11,296 nucleotides of DNA from Promethearchaeota archaeon (GTDB lineage: Archaea; Asgardarchaeota; Lokiarchaeia; Sigyniarchaeales; SOKP01): assembly GCA_048940445.1 (NCBI GenBank), contig JBHLON010000069.1, forward strand, positions 1 to 11,296, in the 5' to 3' direction. The position numbers and the translations under genes were made by a program. The notes below the pieces were generated by a model that was not told the origin of the DNA, ran no database searches, and saw only the letters and a list, made by a program, of their open reading frames with translations. Shown in pieces: positions 9,405-11,296 of the stretch (the first letter of the stretch is position 1; each line of letters begins with the position of its first letter).

Positions 9405-11087
9405 CTAAATATCAATAAACTTTTGAAGTTTTAATTCCAAAGCAGCTACAGGAAATTCTAATTTGAAATTATTTAATACCTCAGGATGAATTTCTCCAAT
9501 TTCTCCGATCTTATTGCTATCTAAAAATATTTCACCATATCTACCTTTAATATAGGTTGGATTATCAGCCGGTTTTACCTCATAATTTAAATCATGACCT
9601 AAAGTTGTCATTAAATAATCTAATGTTGAACGTATTTCAGTGAAGTCTGCATCTTCATGATAAGTTACTACTGCAAGATTAATCTCTCTTTTGGCACCTG
9701 TTTCTTCTTTAGGTTCTAGTAAAATTACATCTCCCACTTCAAAAATTCTAATTGGTTTCTCTTCAGATCGATTAAATAGTAATGTTTCCATTAACTTTGG
9801 CAAAATCTTTGTTCTTAATGTATTATATTCTTTTGAAACCGGATTTTCAATTTCTGTTCTCTCTTGTTTATCACATTTTTGGTTCATAAATATAAATTGT
9901 TTTTCAGAACTCGCCAGAAGAAAATTTAGGACTTCTAGATAGCCTGCTCCAATCATAATTCTTCGAATTTTATTTGCAAAATCTTGTATAGGATGATATT
10001 TTCCTATTCCTCCTTCTCTTATTGTAAGTGGTAATTTGAAATATCCATATCCCATTGCACATTCTTCAGTGAAATCGATTGGATGAATAATATCTCCTCT
10101 ATAAGCAGGTACCAAAACATCCAAAAATCCCTTTTTTTTTGATTTTATAGCATTCATCCTAACTTTTTGGAAACATTTTATCATATCTGTAGGAGTTAAA
10201 TTTAAGCCCATAACACTATTAATATAATCGATATCTACTTCCCATTTAGTGGGATCCAAGTTAGGTGTGATAATTTCTTGTTCTCCTTCATAATTTACTA
10301 TTACACTTTCTATAGTTGCCCCCATATCTGCTAAAGTTGTAGTTAAAATATTTAATGCAAGATTTATTGCCTTAAAGTCGGTGCCTGTTAGATCTAAAAA
10401 TAAATTTTTTGTATCATCCGTAACTGTAGTTAATACTCCATTTATAATTGGAGGAAATGAGAGTACTTCATCATTTTTATCAAATATCATTGGATATACT
10501 TCTTTTCCTTCTAAAATATGAGCATACTCGATACCCTTTTCGTGTAATAATAAAATCTCCTCTAAATTCATCGGATATCCATCTCCATGTAAGGGTTCGA
10601 AGCTTACCGAATCAGGCTTTACAGCAGTATACCTGTAGGGAGGTGTCACCTTATCTAAATCGTGAACACCGATAGCTACCTTTTTTCGGTCTCTTCCAAC
10701 AGCCCAATGCAATTGTTCTTGAATATTCATTAATGTAGCAACCTCATCTTCATCTAAGTCAATATTTCGAATTACACCACACACTATATATGGTCTAACT
10801 TTTTTTACACTTGGGTCCACGTTTAGAGTTATATTTCCTTCCGTGATTTCAAACTTAGGTAAACCTAATTCAAGTTCATAATAACCCTTAAGAACCCTTG
10901 CAATACCTTCTGGACTTGAAAAATCGGGTCTGTTAGGATTGTATTCCACTTTAAGCTTTTGTTCTTGTTCATCAATACCCTCTAAATCTAAACTGATCCA
11001 TTGCAAATCATATTCTAACTTCTTTAAATCTAATTTCTTTCCAACTAATCGTTCTAATCTTTCAATTTTTAATTCAAGCGAAGGAAT
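9405..11087 (-). CDS. pheT: Phenylalanine-tRNA ligase beta subunit, archaeal/eukaryotic type. Start extended to ATT 11087, about 560 aa
   Basis: NRPDF..EGIAR, QEQLH...GRDRKKVAIGVHDLD, SFPPIING, VPAYRGDIIHPIDFTEE..MGYGY, IENPVS, IFEVGDV and GEIHPEVLNNFKLEFPV. No bacterial OB or B8 domains. There are 27 further in-frame codons upstream of the track's TTG 11006 (IPSLELKIERLERLVGKKLDLKKLEYD), resembling the usual archaeal M-P-x-hydrophobic N-terminus. Confidence 0.96.
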   Translation of the reverse strand: MPSLELKIERLERLVGKKLDLKKLEYDLQWISLDLEGIDEQEQKLKVEYNPNRPDFSSPEGIARVLKGYYELELGLPKFEITEGNITLNVDPSVKKVRPYIVCGVIRNIDLDEDEVATLMNIQEQLHWAVGRDRKKVAIGVHDLDKVTPPYRYTAVKPDSVSFEPLHGDGYPMNLEEILLLHEKGIEYAHILEGKEVYPMIFDKNDEVLSFPPIINGVLTTVTDDTKNLFLDLTGTDFKAINLALNILTTTLADMGATIESVIVNYEGEQEIITPNLDPTKWEVDIDYINSVMGLNLTPTDMIKCFQKVRMNAIKSKKKGFLDVLVPAYRGDIIHPIDFTEECAMGYGYFKLPLTIREGGIGKYHPIQDFANKIRRIMIGAGYLEVLNFLLASSEKQFIFMNQKCDKQERTEIENPVSKEYNTLRTKILPKLMETLLFNRSEEKPIRIFEVGDVILLEPKEETGAKREINLAVVTYHEDADFTEIRSTLDYLMTTLGHDLNYEVKPADNPTYIKGRYGEIFLDSNKIGEIGEIHPEVLNNFKLEFPVAALELKLQKFIDI

Positions 11088-11093
11088 ATATGC

Positions 11094-11100
11094 TCACCTC
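11094..11100 (-). promoter_or_regulatory. Shine-Dalgarno GAGGTGA for pheT, overlapping the pheS stop codon
   Basis: Minus strand reads AAA T GAGGTGA GCATAT ATT CCT TCG: a 7-nt SD match with a 6-nt spacer. Confidence 0.8.
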
Positions 11101-11296
11101 ATTTATAATAAGACTGATGTCTTAACCACTTTATTGGATTAATATAGAAGTCTCTCATATCACTCCTATCATAGTAAAGCATTGCAATTCTCTCTAATCC
11201 TTGACCCCACGCTAATACGCGTGTTGGTTCTCGAATTCCCCATGGATAGGTTACCTCTGGTCTAAATATTCCAGATCCTCCTAATTCTAACCATTC
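11099..11296 (-). CDS. pheS: Phenylalanine-tRNA ligase alpha subunit, C-terminal 65 residues (runs off the window; missing from the ORF track)
   Basis: Manual translation gives EWLELGGSGIFRPEVTYPWGIREPTRVLAWGQGLERIAMLYYDRSDMRDFYINPIKWLRHQSYYK*. It has the archaeal PheS WxELGGxGIFRPE segment and class II motif 3 (AWGxGLER), and lies directly upstream of pheT. Confidence 0.96.
   Translation of the reverse strand, partial: EWLELGGSGIFRPEVTYPWGIREPTRVLAWGQGLERIAMLYYDRSDMRDFYINPIKWLRHQSYYK

Follow-up and report, generated by a model that had tools for sequence, protein, structure and literature searches.

Reviews hold that archaea start their proteins at AUG, GUG and UUG and that Shine–Dalgarno (SD) motifs are rare in Lokiarchaea (PMC7531240, PMC12993045). 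Initiation at AUU or AUA has been described in bacteria for infC and pcnB of Escherichia coli and for infC, cvfC1, ccpN and citZ of Staphylococcus aureus (PMC4705826, PMC13009471), and these genes share with the locus reported here a third-position mismatch, a strong, normally spaced SD and conservation across relatives. In S. aureus, ribosome profiling found four such sites, whereas some 56–74 SD-led genes, housekeeping genes included, are predicted from sequence in the present genome, with ATC and ACG in use as well; the fidelity factor is IF3 in bacteria but aIF1 here. Within the Asgard archaea, the closest parallel is atubA of the Kariarchaeaceae (bioRxiv 10.64898/2026.02.15.705738; PMC13394414), for which the deposited protein was too short and an ATT behind a ribosome-binding site restores the fold; however, this is one rare case from another Asgard lineage, described without a frequency or alternation among orthologs.

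Autoregulation of IF3 and eIF1 offers a further likeness—a fidelity-factor gene with a weak start, in this case aIF1, which never begins with AUG in the genus—but that likeness concerns aIF1 in relatives rather than pheT, and the feedback is something that we infer. Among the tables used for annotation, NCBI translation table 11 lists ATT, ATC, ATA and CTG as alternative initiators; these starts have been applied inconsistently in relatives, and ACG lies outside the table. Animal mitochondria use ATA, ATT and ATC starts, the same ATN initiators as here, but the starts described below depend on an SD and involve no recoding of ATA as Met. Already known, then, are AUU/AUA initiation behind strong SDs in bacteria and one published Asgard ATT start; a literature search, which covered few subscription papers, revealed no account of near-cognate starts being frequent in Lokiarchaeia.

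The window analysed here is the whole of an 11.3-kb contig from a 3.64-Mb metagenome-assembled genome (MAG; 93% complete, 30% GC), the closest relatives of which are mostly filed as Promethearchaeota (Lokiarchaeia-type Asgard archaea), with a few placed under other Asgard names by submitters. It carries pheT, an essential tRNA-charging gene, the features of which are listed in Table 1 together with those of two further genes that lack a canonical start.

Table 1. Features of the pheT locus and of two phosphodiesterase genes in the window.
Feature	Position	Strand	Remark
pheT, archaeal-type phenylalanyl-tRNA synthetase beta chain	9405..11087	-	560 aa counted from ATT
ATT, inferred start codon (read as Met)	11085..11087	-	Ortholog codons ATG/ATA/ATT/TTG
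Shine–Dalgarno GAGGTGA	11094..11100	-	6 nt before ATT; overlaps pheS stop
First 27 codons, which a start at TTG 11006 would leave out	11007..11087	-	Gapless alignment to 2CXI
TTG, internal Leu28, first canonical codon	11004..11006	-	Without SD; conserved Leu in ATG-starting orthologs
pheS (alpha chain) 3′ end	11099..11296	-	NF003210/TIGR00468 C-terminal match
ATG-AGG-TGA two-codon frame, in frame with pheT	11094..11102	-	Overlaps pheS stop (ATGA overlap) and SD
Phosphodiesterase/NPP-like paralog 1; ACG, 6 nt behind GGTGA, is the likely start	2566..3876	-	PF01663 from residue 4
Phosphodiesterase/NPP-like paralog 2; ATA, 7 nt behind GAGG, is the likely start	5535..6839	+	PF01663 from residue 4

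The TGA stop of pheS (11101–11099) lies 11 nt above the ATT at 11087–11085, which is followed by Pro-Ser-Leu-Glu-Leu-Lys. The earlier note had described a 7-nt SD ahead of ATT-Pro-Ser-Leu-Glu, with the first canonical codon, TTG 11006, 27 codons further on and lacking an SD; the sequence agrees throughout, and no SD-like motif was found ahead of that TTG. GAGGTGA is a 7-nt match to the archaeal anti-SD, which had to be assumed because 16S rRNA is absent from the assembly, and its spacing of 6 nt fits the canonical starts of the genome (peak 4–8; TTG and GTG 5–6). An in-frame TGA (11096–11094), three codons above the ATT, closes the pheT frame, which runs from stop to stop over 9405..11093; this TGA sits inside the SD and, being in frame, leaves no start further upstream that could serve without read-through. 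Between that stop and codon 28, neither ATG, GTG nor TTG occurs. The frame contains no internal stops, and pheT is single-copy in the genome.

The predicted protein belongs to the archaeal PheRS beta family, scoring 573.6 bits against TIGR00471 pheT_arch (cut-off 282.65), with residues 2–558 aligned to profile positions 2–551, and it contains the Pfam domains B3/4, B5 and tRNA_synthFbeta. Its first 27 residues align without gaps, from residue 2, to the PheRS-beta chain of a Pyrococcus structure (PDB 2CXI; E 3.8e-19). The gene thus displays the sequence features of the infC/pcnB type: no canonical start, a codon differing from AUG by a single base at a site that is AUG in orthologs, and a strong, normally spaced SD.

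Comparison with orthologs points the same way. Across 61 distinct pheT orthologs (merged and deduplicated), the codon before Pro was ATG in 38, ATA in ten, ATT in seven and TTG in six, and nothing else; the first set, from a search of 29 genomes of relatives, had given 13 ATG, ten ATA and six ATT, and the second 28 ATG, six ATT, six TTG and two ATA. An SD-like motif stands at similar spacing ahead of most of them, so that the alternation among ATG, TTG, ATT and ATA at SD distance, which the earlier note had proposed as a check, is what relatives display. Judged by these alignments, the position behaves as a start codon, and the proposal that ATT is the pheT initiator gains support both from the ortholog codons and from the N-terminus aligned to TIGR00471 and 2CXI. 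Start states cluster by clade, with seven changes against 21.6 when labels are shuffled (kin not being independent). In a quick, unbootstrapped tree, the ATA sequences group in a single clade, those with ATT in one or two and those with TTG in several, while genomes of other families have ATG in six of six; ATG is most likely the ancestral state. ATT recurs in the two closest genomes (89% identical), where the spacer bases differ.

Homologs that naturally lack the first 27 residues, which would have counted against the proposal, did not appear: 104 of the best 120 matches start M/L-P, and the truncated homologs examined (P0128–P0130) are close relatives called from downstream codons, these JGI/Logan calls having lost 10–20 residues. 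For three close relatives (P0122, P0123 and P0125), the NCBI annotation already has PheT begin with Met-Pro here, and the start is called three codons late in P0121, P0124, P0126 and P0127.

By itself, pheT illustrates the habit cleanly but is no discovery; what is noteworthy is the lineage-wide pattern. We took 3145 long open frames and scanned around their 5′ ends for matches of at least 5 nt to AGGAGGTGAT, which yielded 448–456 SD-led canonical starts (ATG, TTG or GTG) at normal spacing, TTG accounting for 105/456. For a filtered test, we took the 138 SD matches without a canonical codon within 30 nt and recorded the in-frame codon at aligned spacing 5–7, with expected counts taken from spacings 11–27. 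ATA was observed 29 times (4.4 expected), ATT 28 (10.1), ATC ten (2.1) and ACG five (0.9); CTG, with two (0.5), was not significant alone. These five near-cognates were the five most enriched of all codons, together numbering 74 against 18 expected (p 4e-25). Their spacing of 5–7 was set by the filter, and the same interval is the genome-wide peak for TTG/GTG starts; the near-cognate genes exceeded ATG genes in SD length (p 0.002). About 56 cases are in excess of expectation, which corresponds to 11% of SD-led genes; because only one long frame in six has such an SD, the share among all long frames is just about 2%. An unfiltered statistic that kept canonical-start genes did no better than a shifted-spacing control (p 0.43), internal SD-like sequences swamping the signal, and a pairwise count of genes with no canonical start (38/548) was discarded as inflated by conserved upstream DNA.

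A strict test was anchored on ATG-starting orthologs and required that no canonical codon lie upstream in frame or within eight codons downstream; it found five near-cognate against 171 canonical starts (2.8%) and misses genes that are near-cognate in both genomes. We therefore regard 2–3% of all genes as a floor, the figure of about one in ten applying to SD-led genes rather than genome-wide; to this floor come genes preceded by weaker SDs, such as eS26, the phosphodiesterase of the window that starts at ATA and, in relatives, aIF1. Independent near-cognate genes with ATG in an ortholog exist, among them what we take, from its sequence, to be eS26. A 73-codon gene near 33551–33770 (−) on another contig of this genome (G000 C94) encodes a small CxxC protein whose start is ACG in six members of the genus and ATG in one more, and by that alignment is a clean ACG case.

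The signal was also present in samples from six genomes of the same genus (26 near-cognate against 148 canonical starts) and from three genomes of another family (15 against 157), and it did not show in one GC-rich genome of a further family. AT-rich plasmid controls (Clostridium, Ligilactobacillus and Methanocaldococcus) gave four near-cognate against 163 canonical starts (4/167, 2.4%), compared with a raw share of 74/530 (14%) here (p 8e-6). That such use is unusual among archaea is supported but not settled by these controls, which are small plasmids rather than archaeal chromosomes. One SD-led ATA candidate start occurs on the M. jannaschii plasmid (NC_001732; L334), in the region of what is probably the ATP-binding protein gene MJ_RS08975, so such starts would not be exclusive to Asgard archaea.

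The genetic code itself appears ordinary. Internal ATA, ATT and ATC codons align to Ile in 64–69% of cases and to Met in about 2% (for ATA, 63.6% and 2.1%, like ATT), which rules out mitochondrial-type recoding of ATA as Met. KsgA, uS9, aIF1A and aIF2-beta all occur and show nothing unusual on inspection by eye, aIF1 of relatives keeps its zinc knuckle and basic loop, and among these factors we found no lesion that would explain loose proofreading. There are two aIF1A paralogs, on contigs C59 (86162) and C4 (21432) of G000. Loss of KsgA was rejected as a cause, as the gene occurs here and in nearly all relatives. Loss of aIF1 was likewise rejected: the assembly lacks the gene, but it equally lacks close orthologs of the genes that flank it (best matches 30–42%), and aIF1 occurs in 117 of 121 genomes of the phylum, so that a gap in the assembly is the probable reason. 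Two relatives (G005 and G007) carry two aIF1 copies.

In the genus, every one of the 17 aIF1 copies that include a 5′ end has ATT at the expected start; in 15 of them an in-frame TGA four codons above closes the frame, and two divergent second copies also have GTG inside the SD. Among 73 distinct metagenomic copies, the start is ATT in 71, ATC in two and ATG in none, with an in-frame stop always 2–4 codons above and no canonical codon between. The ATT sits behind a nearly invariant GGTTGTGA motif (L039:1426-1740 and L247-L326). Four other invariant Ile columns of aIF1 mix ATT, ATC and ATA; several neighbouring 5′ codons are also frozen, so part of the constancy of ATT may reflect general constraint. 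In the second family, aIF1 likely starts at TTG, GTG or ATA in nine of ten copies (by inspection, some ambiguous), and in the GC-rich family at ATG in two of two. NCBI already places the aIF1 start at ATT in P0001, P0008, P0011 and P0012. Archaeal 30S subunits bind AUU mRNA in vitro without aIF1 but not with it, and IF3 (through AUU) and eIF1 (through a poor AUG context) autoregulate through weak starts (PMC4705826). Taken together, discrimination by aIF1 against AUU and the autoregulation of IF3 and eIF1 make feedback of aIF1 on near-cognate initiation plausible. In relatives, aIF1 keeps its weak start against reversion to AUG; pheT does not, most orthologs having ATG.

On this evidence we consider it highly probable that an intact pheT is translated from the AUU at 11087 and that SD-positioned near-cognate initiation is tolerated across the lineage. 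The ATT comes from a single MAG and might be a sequencing or assembly error for ATG, but we give this next to no probability: ATT occurs in six other distinct sequences and ATA in ten, the genome holds 74 further near-cognate cases, and recurrence of ATT in independent assemblies, the two closest genomes among them, excludes such an error. TTG is a common start here (105 of the 456 SD-led canonical genes), which lends something to translation from TTG 11006 with a protein 27 residues shorter; this, or decay of pheT into a pseudogene, is nevertheless highly improbable, given that position 11006 has no SD and that the residues encoded by the 27 codons, which match 2CXI from residue 2, are kept by all orthologs. 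The earlier note's judgement against a pseudogene is borne out by this conservation and by the intact, single-copy frame.

Initiation at ATG 11102, with UGA 11096 read through as Sec or Trp or with the Met-Arg mini-frame as a stepping stone for reinitiation, is suggested by the in-frame NTG-AGG-TGA of this MAG and its two closest relatives and by the standing of −4 overlaps as the commonest coupling motif (PMC10666635). We think it quite improbable: in-frame NTG-AGG-TGA is confined to that three-genome clade, and the other ATT clade (one member has GTG-TAA before ATT) and the ATA clade either lack the arrangement or have it out of frame, yet keep ATT or ATA; homologs have nothing ahead of Met-Pro; and the stepping-stone version would still need initiation at ATT. 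The same letters stand out of frame in several ATG-starting relatives, and the mini-frame is probably a by-product of stop plus SD. Editing of the mRNA to AUG, a special initiator tRNA or a change of ATA to Met is also improbable. The initiator tRNA is absent from the assembly and its anticodon unread (none among 18 Rfam matches; ARAGORN with relaxed settings gave noise), and ATA and ACG could turn AUG-like by single deaminations; but ATT would need a U-to-G change, a type of editing that is not known, the different near-cognate codons in use number four or five, and internal ATA shows the Ile alignment given above. A different reading keeps the same start site and makes the ATT a selected device tuning the PheRS level. 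Retention of ATT and ATA within clades and the role of such starts as conserved attenuators in S. aureus (PMC13009471) speak for it, but we judge it unlikely, most orthologs having ATG and the codon switching among four states, whereas aIF1 never reverts to ATG in 73 sequences. Such free switching looks like tolerated drift rather than regulation.

Under translation from the AUU, the SD would fix the small subunit so that AUU lies in the P site, where ordinary Met-tRNAi could pair despite one mismatch and insert Met. Ribosomes terminating on pheS 11 nt upstream may help, possibly by reinitiation, which in Haloferax keeps 40–60% efficiency at 13–14 nt (PMC10666635). AUU/AUA starts behind strong SDs in S. 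aureus give about 10% of AUG output (PMC13009471), so PheT output is probably lowered yet adequate. Start-codon proofreading in the lineage would be loose, allowing ATA, ATT, ATC, ACG and probably CTG to replace ATG behind a strong, correctly spaced SD, and the weak codon would then drift to fixation clade by clade. A likely regulator would be aIF1, its own gene being ATT-started in relatives. We advance only tentatively, as a possibility, the wider proposal that start-codon choice in Lokiarchaeia is relaxed and SD-dependent, AUU, AUA, AUC or ACG serving as the start of several percent of genes (housekeeping genes such as pheT and eS26 among them), with stringency set by feedback from AUU-initiated aIF1.

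Gene callers limited to ATG, GTG and TTG would shorten or overlook dozens of proteins in each Lokiarchaeial genome, as seen for pheT and aIF1, and truncated calls distort structure prediction and cloning of Asgard proteins. In contrast to the reviews, about one-sixth of long open frames here have a clear SD, and about one-tenth of those start on other codons. Eukaryotes evolved very strict AUG selection; set against this, a relaxed Asgard regime with AUU-initiated aIF1 would allow cultured relatives to be used for testing how start-codon stringency evolved. If true, the aIF1 loop would be an archaeal counterpart of IF3/eIF1 autoregulation, co-regulating all near-cognate-start genes in a lineage near the eukaryotic root.

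Elsewhere in the window, the two phosphodiesterase paralogs share the start x-R-N-[IV]-I-I-G-I-D-G-G, and neither has a canonical start; paralog 1 has no canonical codon for 41 codons, and its start aligns codon for codon with that of paralog 2. Downstream of pheT lies a type II chorismate mutase (PF01817; 9035–9388, −), for which GTG 9373 is the likelier start, the called TTG 9388 falling inside an SD-like GGAGGT. A bacterial-type RNase PH (8142–8870, −) scores 329 bits against TIGR01966 (cut-off 141.5), with exosome Rrp41 far below its own cut-off, and was possibly acquired from bacteria. Positions 1–8021, with glycosyltransferase-like genes (read from translations), a sulfatase (PF00884) and the two phosphodiesterases, look like a surface-glycan modification locus.
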